The notes under the pieces are model-generated. The model did no database searches. It was not told where the DNA came from and saw nothing but the letters and a program-made list of their open reading frames with translations. 64,000 nt of DNA from a candidate division WOR-3 bacterium (GTDB lineage: Bacteria; Hydrothermota; Tepidihabitantia; Tepidihabitantales; CAIPLT01): NCBI GenBank assembly GCA_039801505.1, contig JBDRUV010000001.1, positions 275,681-339,680 on the forward strand, in the 5' to 3' direction. This document shows positions 8,057 to 54,272 of this stretch, piece after piece; the stretch's first letter is position 1; each line of letters starts with the position of its first letter. Made by a program: the position numbers and the translations under genes.

Positions 8057-8085
8057 CGGTAGGGGATACGGTCCCCCGGACGGCG
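8057..8085 (+). repeat. GC-rich hairpin element, copy A (CGGTAGGGGATACGGTCCCCCGGACGGCG)
   Basis: Shares GGTAGGGG and TACGGTCCCCC with copy E at 45104. GC-rich island in an AT-rich spacer. Confidence 0.45.
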
Positions 8086-8587
8086 TCATCTTAGCGCGAC
8101 ATAAGTCTGTAGTTTGGGAATTTGGGCGAAGATTCAATCATATTAGTGTGGACTATCCCCTTAAGAATCTTCACCTGACACTTGAGACTTTATTTAGTAC
8201 ATTATTAGTGAGGTTAGTGACGCTCAGCCATATTATGGTTGGCCATTTCCTGAGAACCTCAAAACCCTTAGTTAAAGTTGCTACCCGAAGTCAAACCAAG
8301 AAGTTTACTATATATAGTGTAGTTAATAATTAACCACAATAAACGGAGGGCTAAGGGCGCTTTTCTGTAGTCACCTAGCGATCTGTTAGTTATCTAAACA
8401 AGACCAGCTAACTAGAGGGATATTGTCGTAACTATTTGGCTTATAAGATATTATAATAAATTGATTTAAGTTATTGGTAATTAATACGTTATGCTCAAGG
8501 TATTGCTTGATGACCGGTTGAGGGGTAATGGTATATATATTGGTCGTGGATTTATGAGGTCGGCTTTTTGGGCCGGGCTATTTTTGA

Positions 8588-8685
8588 GTAAAAGTATATA
8601 TAGATGGCGAGTTTTTACATCAAAAGTATATATGTAGGTGATGAGTTTTACCTCAAAAGTATATATAGGTAAAAGTATATATACT
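8588..8685 (+). repeat. Iteron-like array: four AAAAGTATATATA repeats arranged as about 2.5 tandem copies of a 33-bp unit (CAAAAGTATATATGTAGGTGATGAGTTTTACCT)
   Basis: Direct repeats at 8590, 8625, 8658 and 8671, plus a related GGTATATATATTGG at 8530. Lies upstream of the first AAA+ ATPase gene. Confidence 0.5.
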
Positions 8686-8909
8686 GTCGTAAGAGAGGCG
8701 GTAAAAATGCCAACGAGGGTTAGCACAACACCGCTAATGGCGGTTATGAATCATAAAAACCCAGAAAGGGGGTATGGATGGTGTAAGTATCAATCTAAAA
8801 GAAATCTTAATTTAACCAGAAAGGGGGTGAAAACATGGATTTTAGGGCTAGTATTTGATTCCGGGAATGTAACTCCCAATATACCACAAAGAAAGGAGGG
8901 AAAGAGAAA

Positions 8910-9926
8910 ATGGATAACATTTTAGGTAAATATATCGATAAATGTTATAAATATGTAAAAAACGAGGAGAAGATCGCGGCGTTATCCCGCATCTCCTGGG
9001 CCCGTTCGGCCGGTGGTTGTTGGTCAACGAAAGAAGGATATATCCTAAGAGGGGACGTCTTGAAAATTACGGTTGACCAAAAGAATATAGACAAAGATCT
9101 GCGCCAGGCAATTGAGAAACGCGCTCTAATTGAAAAACAAATTAAGCTACTTATCAGAACTGCCAAACGGAGAGGTGTTAAACTGCCATTTGAAGAACTT
9201 GCCCAACGATATGGGCTATCGTCTTTGGAAAAATTGGTTTTTATGACAATTTTTTACAACCGATTATTCAATGTAAAAGACGGAGGCATCCCATACGATC
9301 TTACTGTTAATGAAGTTTTTAAAAAATTAGGAGTCGAACCGAGTAAATATCTTCAAATTGACCGAGCACTTAAGAGGTTAAAGCGGTTGGGATTAATATT
9401 TATAACAATCTCCACCGTATATGTCGACTATTGGGATAAGGATTTTAGGAAGATATCGAAATTGCACTCGTTGTTCCCGGTTTGCTCTAGCAAGATCGAA
9501 ATTAATCCCCAAATTTTTGAATACTTTAAGCTAGATACTCCTATTAATGACAGGCGTAAATTTACTAACAACCCTGATGACAACCCTGATGAATTACCGG
9601 TCGAAATCGAAACCACAATACTTCAAGTCCGAGAACCGAGGATAGATTTTGAGCAAATTATTCTCAATCAGGAACAAACCCAGTTGGTTAATCAAGTGAT
9701 CTATCATGCTAGCCAGGGCATTGAAACTTTATCTAATTGGGGTTTTGATAAAACCATAAAGTATGGCAAAGGGGTGGTGGTGCTGTTTTATGGACCACCT
9801 GGTACTGGCAAGACTGCAACCGCCGAAGCCATTGCCCATCGCTTGGGCAAAAGAATAGGGATTGTGAGCTATGACCAACTTTTAAGTAAATGGTTAGGGG
9901 AGTCAGAAAAAAAAACTTGGTGTTAG
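8910..9926 (+). CDS. AAA+ ATPase paralog 1, N-terminal part. Novel ~250-aa N-domain plus Walker A. The frame ends at an A9 tract and continues in the -1 frame as ORF 9890-10429
   Basis: Strong SD AAAGGAGGG. Ends ...YGPPGTGKTATAEAIA...LGESEKKTWC*. Homologous throughout to the 490-aa protein at 11213-12685. The A9 run is at 9907-9915. Confidence 0.6.
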   Translation: MDNILGKYIDKCYKYVKNEEKIAALSRISWARSAGGCWSTKEGYILRGDVLKITVDQKNIDKDLRQAIEKRALIEKQIKLLIRTAKRRGVKLPFEELAQRYGLSSLEKLVFMTIFYNRLFNVKDGGIPYDLTVNEVFKKLGVEPSKYLQIDRALKRLKRLGLIFITISTVYVDYWDKDFRKISKLHSLFPVCSSKIEINPQIFEYFKLDTPINDRRKFTNNPDDNPDELPVEIETTILQVREPRIDFEQIILNQEQTQLVNQVIYHASQGIETLSNWGFDKTIKYGKGVVVLFYGPPGTGKTATAEAIAHRLGKRIGIVSYDQLLSKWLGESEKKTWC

Positions 9927-10429
9927 CATTTAATGAAGCCCGGGAGACCGATTGTGTTCTACTATTTGACGAGGCTGATAGTCTTTTTGCTTGCCGCCTT
10001 ACTGAGTCACGGAGTGTAGATCGAATGCATAATTATATGACCAATATTCTGATGCAGGAACTAGAGCGATTTGATGGGGTGGTGATTTTAACCACCAATC
10101 GAGAATATGCGTTTGATGAGGCATTTCCGCGTCGGATTCTTTATAAGATTAAGTTTGATATTCCTGGGCCTGCCGAGCGGGCTAGGATCTGGCGGGCCTT
10201 AATACCCCCTGAGGCGCCCTTGGCTCCAGATGTCGATTTTAACCTATTAGCCGAGAAATATGCCCTTACCGGCGGAGAAATTAAAAATGTGATTATAAAA
10301 GCCGCCCTCGAAGGTGCCTCGCAGAATTCGAATATGTTGTCAATGGCATTATTTACTAAATATGCCGAGATCGAACTGGAAAATACAGATCGAAAAGTTA
10401 AACGTCATATTGGTTTTAGGAATGACTAA
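9890..10429 (+). CDS. AAA+ ATPase paralog 1, C-terminal part (Walker B DEAD-like LLFDEAD, sensor and lid). It is in the -1 frame relative to 8910-9926
   Basis: After the A9 tract the frame reads NLVLAFNEARETDCVLLFDEADSLFACRL..., which is collinear with residues ~320-490 of paralog 2. A ~320-bp stretch is 100% nucleotide-identical to 12219-12536. Confidence 0.6.
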   Translation: MVRGVRKKNLVLAFNEARETDCVLLFDEADSLFACRLTESRSVDRMHNYMTNILMQELERFDGVVILTTNREYAFDEAFPRRILYKIKFDIPGPAERARIWRALIPPEAPLAPDVDFNLLAEKYALTGGEIKNVIIKAALEGASQNSNMLSMALFTKYAEIELENTDRKVKRHIGFRND

Positions 10430-10512
10430 TAATTGCTCGAAAAGCAGGTTTCAGGCGCGATATATAACGCTCGATAGCCAATTATACAGATCAACTAAAA
10501 GCTAAAATAGAA

Positions 10513-10556
10513 GGCGGGGTGGTGGTAGGGTACACAGTCCCCTACACCCCCGCCGA
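10513..10556 (+). repeat. GC-rich hairpin element, copy B (GGCGGGGTGGTGGTAGGGTACACAGTCCCCTACACCCCCGCC). It forms a ~17-bp stem and sits 84 nt after the AAA paralog 1 stop
   Basis: Near-perfect inverted repeat with no downstream U-tract. Shares GGTAGGG, TACACAGT and TCCCCTAC with copies C and E. Confidence 0.45.
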
Positions 10557-11212
10557 TAAACCTTACGCAAATAAGCCAGACACGATTAAATTGCACTTAG
10601 GTGGATATTATTTTAACCATAATCAAATCATCACCAGTCTTTCAGCCTGGTATTTGGTGGTTATATTATTGGGATACCCATATCTCAACATTACCCCGAT
10701 GATTAACGATAGCTCTATGTCCCCTAAGCTTGCAGCAAAACTCGGAGGTCTCATTTTAAGTTATAAGTGTTTGATTAACAAAGCATTCTCTAAAAACAGT
10801 CCATCGGACGCAATTATTGTGTGTTGTAAGTCTTTGTTTTATAAATTATTACAAAAATGATATATTTTATGTAATGTTTAAGTCCTTGATAATTAATATC
10901 TTGGAAACACGATCGAAACGATTTTATAAATCATTGTGTATCAAGGCGAAATTTGTTGTTTTATTAGTGTGAACAAGGGGGGTAACTGCCATTATATGTT
11001 AGGAAGACATGTAACGCTGTTAGGAGCAAAAATGCACTGCGATTGGCGGATTATGGAGATAAGAAGGCTGTTATTAGGGAAAACTTTATGGGTTATCATA
11101 TAAAGAGGGGCTATGTTAAACTTCAATAAAGAAAGGAGGTTATATGGACTAAAAATAACCTTAAATCCCAGCAATTTGGCCATAAAAAATAAAGTCAAGA
11201 AAGGAGGATTGA

Positions 11213-12685
11213 ATGAATAGCCAAAAATCAATGGATTTGGATAGCAAAAAATCAATAATAAACTCGTATATTGATAAATGCTATGAGCTAGTTAGGATCC
11301 ATGAGAGATTAGTTAGGCTCTCGCGACAAGAAGGTAGGTGGTTTCCATTCGGCGGTTCCGATTTGGATATAAATGATACCTCAGTTAACAAAACATTCCG
11401 AGAAACATTAAAAGAGAAAGCACGCATTGAAAAAGAACTCAAGAAAATTATACGCCAGGCGAAAGCTCAAGGGTTAACTTTGCCATTTGAGGAAATTGCC
11501 CAAAAGTATAATTTATCGCCATCAGCAAAATTACTGCTCATGGTGGTTTTTTACCATGGAACTCTGGATTCGAGGGACGAAGAGGTAGTGTGTGGACGGA
11601 TTTTTGAGGTTTTGGCTACGAAGCCCAGTGAAAATTTAGAGCTTAGGAGGATAATTAACCAGTTTTTAGAAACTGAACTATTAGAAGAGGCCTCAGATGA
11701 CTCTTGGTTGCTTACATCCCGGTCCCGGCGAGCTGAGCTTTTAAGCAATCTTCAAGTTCGGCTAGGTCCAAAAGTCCTTGAGATTTTAAAACCGGCCCTA
11801 GATCTCAATTTTATAAACCCTCGAGGTTCTAAAAAAATTTTTAATGAGTTGAGGATGAAGCCGAAAGCCCATAAAATTCTTAGTATTCGGGAGCCTCAAT
11901 TGAGCTTTGACCAAATTGTTCATCCTGAGGAGCGACTTCAAATGCTTAATCGGATTATTTTTGATATTAAGTACGGTAATGAAAAATTATTAAAATGGGG
12001 TTTTGATAAAACCATAAAGTATGGCAAAGGGGTGGTGGTGCTGTTTTATGGACCACCTGGCACCGGTAAGACCGCAACTGCCGAGGCTATAGCCTGCGAA
12101 ACTAAAAAGAAACTTGGAGTTGTAAACTACGCACAACTTTTAAACTACTATGTTGGTGAGTCAGAAAAGAATTTGATGAAAGTTTTTAACGAGGCTCGAG
12201 ACGAGAACTGTATATTGCTATTTGACGAGGCTGATAGTCTTTTTGCTTGCCGCCTTACTGAGTCACGGAGTGTAGATCGAATGCATAATTATATGACCAA
12301 TATTCTGATGCAGGAACTAGAGCGATTTGATGGGGTGGTGATTTTAACCACCAATCGAGAATATGCGTTTGATGAGGCATTTCCGCGTCGGATTCTTTAT
12401 AAGATTAAGTTTGATATTCCTGGGCCTGCCGAGCGGGCTAGGATCTGGCGGGCCTTAATACCCCCTGAGGCGCCCTTGGCTCCAGATGTCGATTTTAACC
12501 TATTAGCCGAGAAATATGCCCTTACCGGCGGAGAAATCAAAAATGCCATACTTAAAGCTGTCAAAGATAGTATTTATTTAGGAAATGAGTGTATTACGAT
12601 GGAGTTGCTCTCGAAACACGCCCAGGCTGAGCTGGAAAATGTCAATCGGAAGACTAAGAAGTCAGTAGGATTTAAGGCCGAATGA
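11213..12685 (+). CDS. AAA+ ATPase paralog 2, intact (490 aa; classic clade, SpoVK/Ycf46/Vps4-like core; novel N-terminal domain)
   Basis: Walker A GPPGTGKT, Walker B ILLFDEAD, TTNR sensor-1 and arginine-finger region. SD AAGAAAGGAGG. N-domain shares YIDKCY and LPFEE(I/L)AQ(K/R)Y.LS with paralog 1. Confidence 0.8.
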   Translation: MNSQKSMDLDSKKSIINSYIDKCYELVRIHERLVRLSRQEGRWFPFGGSDLDINDTSVNKTFRETLKEKARIEKELKKIIRQAKAQGLTLPFEEIAQKYNLSPSAKLLLMVVFYHGTLDSRDEEVVCGRIFEVLATKPSENLELRRIINQFLETELLEEASDDSWLLTSRSRRAELLSNLQVRLGPKVLEILKPALDLNFINPRGSKKIFNELRMKPKAHKILSIREPQLSFDQIVHPEERLQMLNRIIFDIKYGNEKLLKWGFDKTIKYGKGVVVLFYGPPGTGKTATAEAIACETKKKLGVVNYAQLLNYYVGESEKNLMKVFNEARDENCILLFDEADSLFACRLTESRSVDRMHNYMTNILMQELERFDGVVILTTNREYAFDEAFPRRILYKIKFDIPGPAERARIWRALIPPEAPLAPDVDFNLLAEKYALTGGEIKNAILKAVKDSIYLGNECITMELLSKHAQAELENVNRKTKKSVGFKAE

Positions 12686-15288: not shown

Positions 15289-16477
15289 TTTCACCGAGGA
15301 ACAACTAATGATCCAAAAGTTAGCTCGGGATTTTGCCCAAAAAGAAGTAGCACCGCGGATTAAAGAACTCGATGAAAAAGCCGAGTTTGACCGTTCGATC
15401 TTAACCAAAATGGCGGAATTAGGGCTATTAGGTCTAACAATCCCTACCCGATACGGTGGGAGTGGCGGTGATTACATCTCACTGGGTTTGGCATGTGAGG
15501 AATTAGAATATGTAGATACCTCACTGCGCGTAATTCTTTCTGTGCATATCGGACTTAATAGCTTAACACTCTTAAGCTGGGGAACCGAAGAACAGAAGCA
15601 GAAATATCTAGTACCTCAAGCCCAGGGCAAAAAAATTGCAACTTTTGGGCTTACCGAACCCAATGCCGGCAGCGACGTTGTGGCGATTGAGGCCCGGGCA
15701 CACCGGGATGGTGACGATTGGATTCTTAATGGCGAGAAAATGTGGATTTCCTTAGCCGATGTTGCTGATAATTTTCTAATCTTTGCCTGGACCGATCCCG
15801 AAAAGCGCAAGAAACGCGATCATTCCGGCATCAGTTGTTTTATTGTCGAGCGCAGTTTTCCCGGTGTCAGCACAGCAACTATTCACGGAAAACTAGGAAT
15901 TCGGGCTGGTAACACCGGTTCCATCTCATTAGCTGATGTTCGAGTGCCCAAAGAAAATATGCTTGGACAAGAAGGTGAGGGTTTTAAAATTGCCATGTTT
16001 GCATTAGACCAGGGGCGATACACTGTAGCCGCAGGCGCTACCGGATTAATTCGGGCTTGCCTTGACCACTCAATAAAATATGCTAATGAACGTAAAACCT
16101 TTGGTGAAGTTATTGGCAAACACCAGCTAGTAAAAGAAATGATTACCGAAATGGTCGTAGGATATGAATGTGCGCGTCTTTTGTGGTTAAAAGCTGGTTG
16201 GTGTAAGAACAAAGGCTTAAGGAGTACCCGAGAAACCTCTTTGGCAAAAATGTTTGCCTGCGACGCTTCAGAACGAGCAGCATCCCTGGCCGTACAGATT
16301 TATGGTGCTTATGGTTATTCTAATGAATATCCGGTCGAGCGATTCTATCGCAATGCCAAAGGCGCAGTGATTTACGAAGGCTCACGAGAAATCCATAAAA
16401 TTATGCAAGCCGATTATGCATTAGGTTACCGAGTGGATAAGCCAACTCGTTGCACTTTACCACTTCCTGAGGAATAA
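15275..16477 (+). CDS. Acyl-CoA dehydrogenase (short-chain/butyryl-CoA dehydrogenase-like)
   Basis: FTEEQ..I...ARDFA..E..P N-terminus; ACAD middle and C-terminal domains; catalytic YEGS.EI near the C-terminus. Confidence 0.85.
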   Translation: MIDFSFTEEQLMIQKLARDFAQKEVAPRIKELDEKAEFDRSILTKMAELGLLGLTIPTRYGGSGGDYISLGLACEELEYVDTSLRVILSVHIGLNSLTLLSWGTEEQKQKYLVPQAQGKKIATFGLTEPNAGSDVVAIEARAHRDGDDWILNGEKMWISLADVADNFLIFAWTDPEKRKKRDHSGISCFIVERSFPGVSTATIHGKLGIRAGNTGSISLADVRVPKENMLGQEGEGFKIAMFALDQGRYTVAAGATGLIRACLDHSIKYANERKTFGEVIGKHQLVKEMITEMVVGYECARLLWLKAGWCKNKGLRSTRETSLAKMFACDASERAASLAVQIYGAYGYSNEYPVERFYRNAKGAVIYEGSREIHKIMQADYALGYRVDKPTRCTLPLPEE

Positions 16478-24072: not shown

Positions 24073-24253
24073 AATTAACTATACTGGAATGTCGCTTATG
24101 GTCAAGAATAAATTGCGGCTAATAGTTTGGTAGTAAAGACAAGCTAAAAAATCTCAAACGCTCCTTTTGATTTTAACTATTAATCAGCGAACTATAAAGC
24201 TTATCTCAAATATTTCAGCGGCACCCTTTATAACTTTTATTAATATCTATTAA

Positions 24254-24288
24254 CCGTATCGGGGACCGCCTAGACACTGTGTACCCCT
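24254..24288 (+). repeat. GC-rich hairpin element, copy C (CCGTATCGGGGACCGCCTAGACACTGTGTACCCC)
   Basis: About 85% identical to the reverse complement of copy D (32225-32262). Lies in a 550-bp divergent intergenic region. Confidence 0.45.
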
Positions 24289-24526
24289 AAGCAGTAGAGT
24301 TTTACTCACCACTTAGAGAGACTCAGGGCTTCCAAAACTATTGATTTCAAAGAACTTACAAAGTCAAAATTCAGAACCCCCACCAATTTTACCCGTTTTT
24401 TGCTTAATAAAATAATTTTTACGCGCAAAATCGGTAGTGGGTTAATATAACATAAGACACTGTTGTTGTCAAGATGCTTAATTGTTATTTATTGATTAAC
24501 AACTAACTGGCTGGTGCTAAATACTC

Positions 24527-24555
24527 TTGACTTTTAGGTAAAATCTCAGTATTAT
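24527..24555 (+). promoter_or_regulatory. sigma70 promoter TTGACT-17-TATTAT upstream of the EF-G-like gene
   Basis: Hexamers at 24527-24532 and 24550-24555. Confidence 0.35.
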
Positions 24556-32064: not shown

Positions 32065-32224
32065 AAATTTTTATAAATATCTTATCAAAATTATCATGAT
32101 TGTCAAGAATTCCAGAATGAAGCATTATTAAATTAATTCCCCAGATTAGTATTTTGAAGCATCAATATATTATATGCCGGAGCCGAAATCAGTAATTAAC
32201 CAGTATTCTAAATTCCTAATAAGT

Positions 32225-32262
32225 AGGATACACAGTGCCTAGACGGTACCCGATACGGCCTT
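32225..32262 (+). repeat. GC-rich hairpin element, copy D (GGATACACAGTGCCTAGACGGTACCCGATACGGCC), 161 bp from the 5' end of tRNA-Met
   Basis: The reverse complement matches copy C. Shares CCGTATCGGGTACC with copy F. Confidence 0.45.
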
Positions 32263-32505
32263 GCGGTTTTAAGAAAAGTTAACTAAGCGATGACCCGAGC
32301 ATCAATCATATGATTTATTGCCCTCAGCGTAATCGATAAAGTTCTTGGATACTTTGTTTAATTCCCCCATTAACTCCTTCCCGCAAGGATCCTCGAAAAT
32401 CCTACCGGGTTAATTTTCTTGGTAATAAGTACCATATAAAAGATCTTGACAGTGTGTAATCGATCTTTAGAATATTAAAACAAGCTCAAAATATTAGGAG
32501 GGTTT

Positions 32506-44945: not shown

Positions 44946-45103
44946 ATTATTATTTTAGTTTACCCTGAAAATTCTTAATTGTCAATTAGTTTGATTAACT
45001 ACCATTCTATTCCTTATCCTGGGTGTCCTAATTCAGCATTTTTTGTTATATTGTTGGGGGCTCGTGATAAATTTTTTAGAAATCAAGCGCTTAAAACGAT
45101 TTA

Positions 45104-45175
45104 GGTAGGGGGTACGGTCCCCCTACGGTCCGGGAGATATCCCGGGCAGCTTCAGACTGCTGCTTTTCGCAAGAA
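45104..45175 (+). repeat. GC-rich hairpin element, copy E, the longest: three consecutive hairpins (GTAGGGGG/CCCCCTAC, CCGGGA/TCCCGG, GCAGC/GCTGC) ending in TTTTCG. This is sRNA-like or terminator-like. It lies 159 bp from the 5' end of tRNA-Gln
   Basis: GGTAGGGGGTACGGTCCCCCTACGGTCCGGGAGATATCCCGGGCAGCTTCAGACTGCTGCTTTTCG. Confidence 0.45.
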
Positions 45176-45308
45176 TACGGTAAGCTTGCCAGCTGGATAT
45201 GTTGGGTGAATGTAGGTGGCATATAATAACGGTAATCATCCGGCTCAATCTATGATGTTTTTTGTATATTCATAGGCTTATGGTTACCGGTAGCGTATTA
45301 AATATTCA

Positions 45309-45337
45309 TTGACATTACGAGTTAGTTTGGGTAATGT
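45309..45337 (+). promoter_or_regulatory. sigma70 promoter TTGACA-17-TAATGT for the amidohydrolase gene
   Basis: Located inside the ORF-track version of the gene (TTG start), which argues for the downstream ATG at 45345. Confidence 0.35.
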
Positions 45338-45344
45338 ATTGAAA

Positions 45345-46615: not shown

Positions 46616-46694
46616 AACGGAAGGAACAGTGCGAAGGCACCATCTTTATTCTTTCCAATTTAAGGTGCCTTTTTACTCGCCCGTAACCTTCCGT
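46616..46694 (+). terminator. Nested-hairpin rho-independent terminator for the amidohydrolase gene
   Basis: Outer stem ACGGAAGG/CCTTCCGT; inner stem GAAGGCACC/GGTGCCTT followed by TTTTT. Confidence 0.5.
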
Positions 46695-46728
46695 CCATTT
46701 TATTAGACTCAAAAATTTATAAAAGGTT

Positions 46729-54087: not shown

Positions 54088-54130
54088 CATCCCCCAGACC
54101 GTATCGGGTACGGGGCGTGCTGAGGGGTGT
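54088..54130 (+). repeat. GC-rich hairpin element, copy F (CCATCCCCCAGACCGTATCGGGTACGGGGCGTGCTGAGGGGTG)
   Basis: Contains CCGTATCGGGTACGG, which is the reverse complement of the copy D core. Lies in a divergent intergenic region. Confidence 0.45.
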
Positions 54131-54244: not shown

Positions 54245-54272
54245 TTGACAATCAAGAAAGCTTGGTCATAAT
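54245..54272 (+). promoter_or_regulatory. sigma70 promoter TTGACA-16-CATAAT for the YbbR-like gene
   Basis: Hexamers at 54245-54250 and 54267-54272; AAGGA SD; ATG at 54289. Confidence 0.35.

Follow-up and report, generated by a model that had tools for sequence, protein, structure and literature searches.

A loose family of GC-rich, tentatively REP-type repeats in the intergenic DNA of a candidate division WOR-3 bacterium

The window and its six GC-rich islands

The 64-kb stretch of DNA analysed here (the window) comes from the chromosome of an uncultured bacterium of candidate division WOR-3 and has a GC content of about 40%. Its genes are housekeeping genes and include nrdD, purB, an RND efflux operon, fusA, pyrB, mreB, guaD, obg and tsaD; dprA and two tRNA genes, tRNA-Met and tRNA-Gln, are also present. 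No transposase and no Y1_Tnp/RAYT domain was found with Pfam in the called genes that cover the window. The window is 99.9% identical to CBFGJW010000001.1 (GCA_965649175.1) and 99.6-99.7% identical to a 242-kb contig of GCA_039801585.1. Logan contigs from SRR27730047 match it as well, and proteins identical to those of the window are also encoded on another contig of 553,804 bp. With a further 13.4 kb, about 77 kb of DNA of this species was read. The nearest other species, referred to below as the sister species (GCA_026418235.1, GCA_033582495.1 and GCA_025061975.1), shares 75-83% protein identity and a conserved gene order with the window, while a more distant WOR-3 relative (JGI metagenome 3300043544) shows 68-73% identity.

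A preliminary description of this DNA had pointed out six GC-rich islands, A to F, and reading the sequence confirmed each of them at its coordinates. They are 24-44 nt long, are found in both orientations and represent almost all the GC-rich islands in the true spacers of the window. Their composition had been given as 60-75% GC in DNA of about 38%. The contrast is real, with values of 55-76% for the islands (0.76, 0.70, 0.63, 0.55, 0.61 and 0.67 for A to F) versus 32-40% in the 300-nt flanks.

Elements A and B are located after genes. A (8057..8085, plus strand; cGGTAGGGGATACGGTCCCCCGGACGG) is a short-form element lying 20 nt past the stop codon of a 46-aa ORF, a gene call taken from loci L005 and L006, which itself follows an SNF transporter gene; its sequence is identical in three other assemblies. 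B (10513..10556, plus strand) is a near-perfect 44-nt palindrome, GGCGGGG..GGTAGGGTACACAGTCCCCTAC..CCCCGCC, located 84 nt past the first of two tandem AAA-ATPase paralogs. It belongs to a segment (10290-11979) that is absent from two other assemblies. The paralogs themselves (8910-12685) are 93% identical over 300 nt at a spacing of 2256 nt, and a 1-nt indel breaks the first one into the ORFs 8910-9926 and 9890-10429. In two other assemblies of this species a single 505-aa hybrid AAA-ATPase gene is present and 10290-11979 is missing, which corresponds either to a recombination deletion or to a repeat collapsed in the MAGs. Upstream of the first AAA-ATPase gene, the region 8548-8760 contains three copies of a 21-nt repeat (TTTTAC.TCAAAAGTATATAT) about 32 nt apart (8581-8666) and is highly structured (z as low as -5.6, minus strand).

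The other elements are located in spacers between divergent genes. C (24252..24292, minus strand; cTTAGGGGTACACAGTGTCTAGGCGGTCCCCGATACGG) is a long-form element between a DUF2520 gene (-) and fusA, encoding EF-G (+). D (32223..32262, plus strand; GTAGGATACACAGTGCCTAGACGGTACCCGATACGG), also of the long form, lies between tRNA-Met (-) and a GxxExxY, PD-(D/E)XK_3 gene (+). F (54088..54130, minus strand; CCCCGTACCCGATACGGTCTGGGGG) is a partial member between rsmD (-) and a ybbR-like gene (+). The 72-nt stretch initially flagged as E begins with a short-form element of 24 nt, E1 (45104..45127, plus strand; GGTAGGGGGTACGGTCCCCCTACG), which is its sole family part and forms a perfect 8-bp stem (GTAGGGGG/CCCCCTAC) with a 6-nt loop. 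It is followed on the same strand by the hairpins E2 (45130-45145, CCGGGA-GATA-TCCCGG) and E3 (45146-45163, GCAGC-N8-GCTGC, then TTTT), which together span 45130..45167. Neither belongs to the family, and blastn detected no above-chance similarity of E2 or E3 to the other elements. E2 and E3 are a separate local structure adjoining E1. Two elements vary between strains: the change 32248 A>C in GCA_039801585.1 brings D closer to C, and position 54123 in F is changed from A to T in three other assemblies. SNPs in two of six elements are not clearly above the 0.1-0.4% background divergence.

Sequence relationships and folding of the islands

The relatedness of the elements was assessed by comparing Smith-Waterman scores of each pair with those of 1000 dinucleotide shuffles of one partner. 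Eight of the 15 pairs reached p<0.05 and connected all six elements in one graph: A-E1 and C-D (both <=0.001), D-F (0.002), B-D (0.004), A-B (0.005), C-F (0.006), B-C (0.015) and C-E1 (0.048). The closest pairs are those already singled out. The claimed likeness of C to the reverse complement of D corresponds to the longest inverted repeat of the window (56 nt, 77% identity, core 29/33), and that of A to E to a match of 23/26 between A and E1. These two pairs alone are significant by themselves against the whole window in blastn (E=2e-6 for C-D and 2e-4 for A-E).

The remaining links are made of short words. D and F share an exact 13-mer on opposite strands, but CCGTATCGGGTACC is absent from F and the word does not extend to the 14-mer initially proposed. 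B does share GGTAGGG with A and E and GGGTACACAGT with C, while its 22-mer is unique. In blastn, the links of B and F are words of 11-14 nt with E of about 0.06-3, alone no better than chance elsewhere, and about 12 chance matches of at least 10 nt to the elements were seen in the window. The 13-mer TACCCGATACGGT in an acyl-CoA dehydrogenase gene (15445-15457) was judged a chance match, with about 0.3 expected. CCCGATACGG occurs four times in the window versus 0.1 expected, three of these occurrences being the elements themselves, and the family words of 7-8 nt occur at expectation, with no enrichment in the window.

Once oriented with the GTAG-like end first, the elements show a modular organization. 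The long form of C and D, about 36 nt, reads GTAGG.TACACAGTG.CTAG.CGGT.CCCGATACGG. The short form is GGTAGGGGATACGGTCCCCCGGACGG in A and GGTAGGGGGTACGGTCCCCC-TACGG in E1, and lacks the central ACAGTG.CTAG.C module of the long form; the two forms align module by module. In B, the 5' module GGTAGGGTACACAGT is enclosed in a longer private palindrome and the family resemblance is confined to the inner ~22 nt, while F shares with C and D only the 3' module GTACCCGATACGG. The GTAG head is present in A, B, D and E1, reads TTAG in C and is missing from F; it is base-paired within the stem in E1 and B. A profile HMM built from all six elements recovered C (E=1.4e-9), D (1.4e-8), E1 (0.0095), B (0.02) and A (0.02), and did not recover F.

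These data also bear on whether there is a single family at all. Two independent small duplications (A/E1 and C/D) could have been grouped with unrelated GC-rich hairpins (B, F, E2 and E3), the likeness arising from G-runs, C-runs and short words that recur in any GC-rich island. This would agree with the individual significance of A-E and C-D only, with B and F matches comparable to the chance 13-mer of the acyl-CoA dehydrogenase gene, with the ordinary frequency of the family words and with the failure of the HMM to find F. We regard it as improbable. The shuffles were matched in composition and still gave p<=0.015 for A-B, B-C, B-D, C-F and D-F, which join all six elements. The shared 13-mer is significant among the six elements because this search space is tiny (about 7e-5 expected). 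Moreover, the long and short forms are alignable by module, and the copy at the E site of the sister species bridges them: in it, GTAGGGGGTA of E1 precedes the long-form TACAGT. The six islands are thus related beyond composition and form a loose but real family.

The family HMM detected no further copy in the window or in the additional 13.4 kb of the same species. A seventh candidate, "G" (L003 19118-19155), was dropped, with p of 0.06-0.35 in the shuffle test and no HMM match. Exact searches for the word common to A and E, GGTAGGGGNTACGGTCCCCC, gave no match in GTDB species genomes, JGI metagenomes or IMG/VR, collections in which the species is absent; the same holds for the C/D long form in IMG/VR, where the species is likewise absent. 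Comparison of C and E with PLSDB plasmids by blastn gave only chance-level matches (E 0.2-0.7) and no IS end.

All six elements had been said to fold into stable hairpins, which turned out to be the case for two of them when dinucleotide shuffles are used as the reference. B folds at -25.9 kcal/mol with z of -2.8 and -3.0 on the two strands, and E (45100-45178) at -37.3 kcal/mol with z of -4.1 (+) and -4.9 (-). A (+0.8/+0.2), C (+0.4/-0.1), D (+0.7/-0.4) and F (-0.6/+0.4) fold no better than shuffles. The stems of E1, B and A pair a G-run with a C-run and measure 8 bp in E1, 6 bp plus an outer stem in B and 5-6 bp in A, where GGGGA pairs with TCCCC. A search for a shared structure supported by covariation was negative: RNAalifold gave a consensus of -1.07 kcal/mol with a covariation term of +0.58, and its sole helix, 6 bp of GGGG/CCCC, is broken in several members.

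Could the islands nevertheless act as RNA, as small RNAs, 3' stabilising hairpins or terminators? E would then correspond to an RNA of some 85 nt with a hairpin and a U-tract at its end, and A and B would be 3'-UTR hairpins. The folding of E and B, far better than that of shuffles, points in this direction, as do the UUUU after E3, the sense-strand position of A and B 20 and 84 nt past stop codons, and a block, TTTAGAAATCAA, located 20-30 nt upstream of E1 in both species, which could be a -10 region. Against this, z is similar on both strands for E and B, as DNA palindromes would give, A, C, D and F fold no better than shuffles, and no structure is common to the six elements. Rfam 15 retrieved only the two tRNAs at the gathering score in the window and nothing at the elements even at E<=10; at E<=1, nothing was found at the elements of three related loci either. 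The three hairpins described in E do exist, but only four T follow E3, which is not called terminator-like, and no gene precedes E3 on that strand. None of A, B, C, D and F is followed by a T-run, and the terminator scan made no call at any element, whereas real terminators of this genome, such as the one after guaD (46617-46700), have clear T-runs. C, D, E and F lie upstream of recognisable promoters on either side, and the hairpins of E are missing from its ortholog in the sister species. The small-RNA reading is not upheld by these data, and a role as RNA in any of the three forms seems quite improbable. Rho-independent terminators and 3' stabilising hairpins thus resemble the islands in being GC-rich hairpins after genes (A, B) or a hairpin followed by UUUU (E3), and differ in their T-runs, in being called by the scan and in having an upstream gene to terminate, which four of the elements lack.

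The hairpin after guaD is an observation of its own. It is nested, ACGGAAGG...GGCACC-loop-GGTGCC TTTTT...CCTTCCGT, and its 26-mer ACGGAAGGAACAGTGCGACGGCACCA is identical in the sister species (L009 11276-11359) and in the 73% relative (L012 11294-11319), with one base different in the window. Such conservation is unusually strong for a terminator.

Promoters, neighbouring genes and the sister species

As stated in the preliminary description, all the elements are outside annotated genes; the sole overlap is that of B with a mechanical 113-aa ORF, which has no Pfam match. The count of four elements out of six in divergent spacers is also correct, but the excess is not significant (binomial p about 0.13) because such spacers make up about a third (~36%) of the spacer DNA. 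C, D, E and F are found in the promoter-free middle of long divergent spacers, with strong, outward-facing sigma-70-like promoters near the genes that match the consensus at 10-11 of 12 positions. Each -35 hexamer is 63-190 nt downstream of the element. Promoter-like sites were located at 24105-24078 (-), 24472-24444 (-) and 24527-24555 (+) around C, at 32106-32079 (-) and 32446-32473 (+) around D, and at 54025-53996 (-) and 54245-54272 (+) around F. A and B are downstream of genes and not near promoters. The known copies are confined to places that tolerate insertions, just after genes or in the promoter-free middle of long divergent spacers.

Beyond one of the promoters around C, at 24472-24444 (TTGACA-17-TATATT with an upstream TG, 11 of 12 positions), come a long hairpin, AACCCACUACCG...CGGGUAAAAUUGGUGGGGGUU, and a U-rich tail. 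Folding in this region (24340-24472, minus strand) is strongly strand-asymmetric, 120-nt windows giving z of -6.0 (-) versus -1.7 (+). It is a candidate small RNA or leader upstream of C and of the DUF2520/TetR/efflux operon, with no Rfam match.

A uniform distance between elements and promoters was considered and rejected; only D and E1 agree. Measured to the 5' end of the tRNA, the GTAG of D is 158 nt upstream of tRNA-Met and the GTAG of E1 159 nt upstream of tRNA-Gln, both in the same orientation. Both tRNAs are on the minus strand, and the intervening sequences (32065-32226 and 44946-45108) are unrelated save for the -35 region. In the sister species, tRNA-Gln and the E-site island have four genes between them. 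These genes, absent from the window, encode a ferredoxin, two unknown proteins and a T9SS-tail protein between tRNA-Gln and guaD (L009 6622-10000 versus 44947-45344 in the window) and mark an insertion/deletion breakpoint at or beside the E spacer.

Three sites, C, E and F, could be compared with the sister species, and all three carry a related GC-rich island in the same orientation. At the F site, the sister copy (L009 18889-18925, ATCCCCCAGACGGTATCAGGGG...) matches F at 23/27 positions. At the C site (L014 11643-11620, minus strand) the match to C is 15/21. At the E site, upstream of guaD (L010 9733-9751, AAGTAGGGGGTATACAGTT), the copy shares the 5' half of E1, a match of only 10 nt; its head is GTAG in one strain and GCAG in the other. 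The E-site and C-site islands are the two best HMM matches outside the training set in more than 150 kb. The E site had at one stage been read as inverted in the sister species (GCGAAAAGCAG...CGGGATAT); this was rejected, CCGGGA..TCCCGG being palindromic and both the alignment and the HMM giving the same orientation. The sister spacers around the islands have 19-30% GC, and the islands are GC-rich in both species. The GxxExxY protein beside D has no paralogs listed from the genome and its nearest homologs are in non-syntenic contigs, so the D, A and B sites are not comparable with the sister species. Over the 34 kb compared, no site was gained or lost. The sites compared were already occupied before the two species separated and have stayed so.

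Paralogs within the window (88%; C-D 29/33, A-E1 23/26) are at least as alike as orthologs between species (71-85%), a pattern suggestive of copying or gene conversion at stable sites. Furthermore, the E-site copy of the sister species is of the long type, whereas E1 has the same internal deletion as A. Since two identical independent deletions are unlikely, sequence was probably copied between sites after the species split.

In the preliminary description, a global operator was among the options for the islands. Their distance and orientation to promoters vary and their sequences are too heterogeneous for one binding motif, which speaks against such an operator. More generally, the islands could be cis-acting DNA sites for a DNA-binding protein of an architectural, insulator or upstream-activator type, which would act between back-to-back promoters and whose specificity would co-evolve with its sites. 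The location of C, D, E1 and F in mid-spacer, upstream of both -35 hexamers, is consistent with this, as are the conserved and still GC-rich positions in the sister species, the matching distances of D and E1 to the tRNAs in the same orientation, and the many neighbours involved in translation (fusA, two tRNAs, rsmD/obg and tsaD). We nonetheless consider such sites unlikely. There is no motif common to the six elements, the HMM misses F and B shares only ~11-14 nt; promoter distances and orientations differ, A and B are away from promoters, the enrichment in divergent spacers is not significant, and the sister E-site island is four genes away from tRNA-Gln. In addition, orthologous copies diverge faster than the neighbouring promoter blocks. 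A more specific proposal holds that the islands are not selfish repeats but WOR-3-specific, site-stable and concertedly evolving GC-rich elements midway between back-to-back promoters, two of them at 158-159 nt from tRNA genes. A chromosomal protein that evolves fast would use them as binding or structural sites, for instance as a topological insulator or as a platform for upstream activation, with a sequence family that turns over between species while its positions persist. This proposal has, in our opinion, little chance of being correct.

Relation to REP repeats and other known elements

GTAG-type REPs have a stem of about 6-13 bp (rarely 5), a short loop and an unpaired GTAG/GT[AG]G end; they are usually present in more than 100 copies per genome, and the cognate RAYT gene is typically flanked by inverted REPs. 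They are palindromes of 20-40 bp with a terminal GTAG, often species-specific (PMC3733652, PMC2817692), and are thought to be mobilised by RAYT/TnpA-REP transposases (PMC3733652, PMC2817692, PMC8266576). REP classes switch between related strains (PMC3686654), and REPs are mostly found between co-directional or convergent genes, often as inverted doublets, BIME/REPIN (PMC3733652).

Of the three options raised at the outset, namely REP-like repeats, small RNAs or a global operator, the first fits best. The islands are short (20-40 nt), GC-rich, extragenic and partly palindromic, mostly with a GTAG head; they are dispersed in either orientation, species-specific, and resemble each other more within the genome than they do across related species. 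Several features set them apart from GTAG-REPs. C, D and F have weak stems or none, with no better-than-shuffle hairpin, and there is no shared family fold; GTAG is paired in E1 and B and absent in F. All six elements are singletons, with no BIME/REPIN or other inverted doublets, and divergent genes flank four of them. The called genes of the window include no RAYT, and the copies found number six in 64 kb and none in a further 13.4 kb of the same species. Finally, there is no direct evidence of mobility, because no site was gained or lost relative to the sister species in the 34 kb compared. Weighing these points, we tentatively favour, at slightly less than even confidence, a low-copy, lineage-specific family of short GC-rich dispersed repeats of the REP type, some copies being fragments; we do not claim membership in a RAYT-mobilised class.

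Each element of such a family would carry a GTAG-like head and, after it, an imperfect palindrome based on a G-run and a C-run. Copying between sites would keep the islands GC-rich and alike within the genome. It may proceed by gene conversion, or by replacement through a REP-processing enzyme such as a RAYT-type HUH transposase that would be encoded elsewhere, and would act on DNA hairpins and not via RNA. A host function, in protein binding or topology, would be secondary and is putative.

The islands were also compared with two other kinds of short sequences. Like MITEs, they are small, non-coding, dispersed intergenic repeats in permissive sites, and the related WOR-3 genome carries a longer dispersed repeat (~200-400 nt) in equivalent spacers. 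Unlike MITEs, they are shorter than is typical of that class and no insertion polymorphism was seen between the species; the homology of C and D, which ends after ~58 nt, is flanked by neither terminal inverted repeats nor target-site duplications, and inspection of its borders revealed no direct repeats. DNA uptake sequences (USS/DUS) are likewise short words found in both orientations and partly in palindromes, as is CCCGATACGG, and dprA is present in the window. CCCGATACGG departs from uptake sequences in its low number of occurrences (four in the 64 kb), in the lack of any excess of its shorter sub-words and in not being distributed across coding DNA.

The repeat of the 68-73% relative is specific to that species and has a core, CCACCCCCTGG, found in four copies in 40 kb (L012 2731-3109 and 13317-13682; L016 8355-8386 and 20545-20569), located in long spacers of the same kinds as those of the window elements, including one by DUF2520. 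In two of the copies a 190-nt core is 98% identical, and the flanks are ~70% identical. The core folds well on one strand only (z -2.7 versus 0.0), and a TATAAT is present just upstream of it on one strand. This repeat may be a multi-copy small RNA or a MITE, and nothing in Rfam matches it. Its 380-nt sequence showed no homology to the window by blastn. A likeness between TAGGGGGTATAGTGCC in this repeat and TAGGGGTACACAGTGTC in the window was set aside as visual only, and the TAAGATGCC.GAAAA module, common to the relative's repeats and the F spacer, as not enriched in the window (7 versus 5.3 expected). The core word CCACCCCCTGGTACGTATTAG is present in L012 and had no match in the metagenome set, which omits its source.

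The finding as it stands is a modest annotation result and not a new mechanism. The REP literature cited here reports no REP from candidate division WOR-3. Repeats of this kind, together with the tandem AAA-ATPase paralogs beside B, are places where MAG assemblies break or collapse. If confirmed genome-wide, the family would extend REP-type short repeats to WOR-3, an uncultured phylum known only from metagenome bins. It would also provide a case in which repeat positions persist across species while their sequences are homogenised in each genome, which bears on how REP families are maintained.
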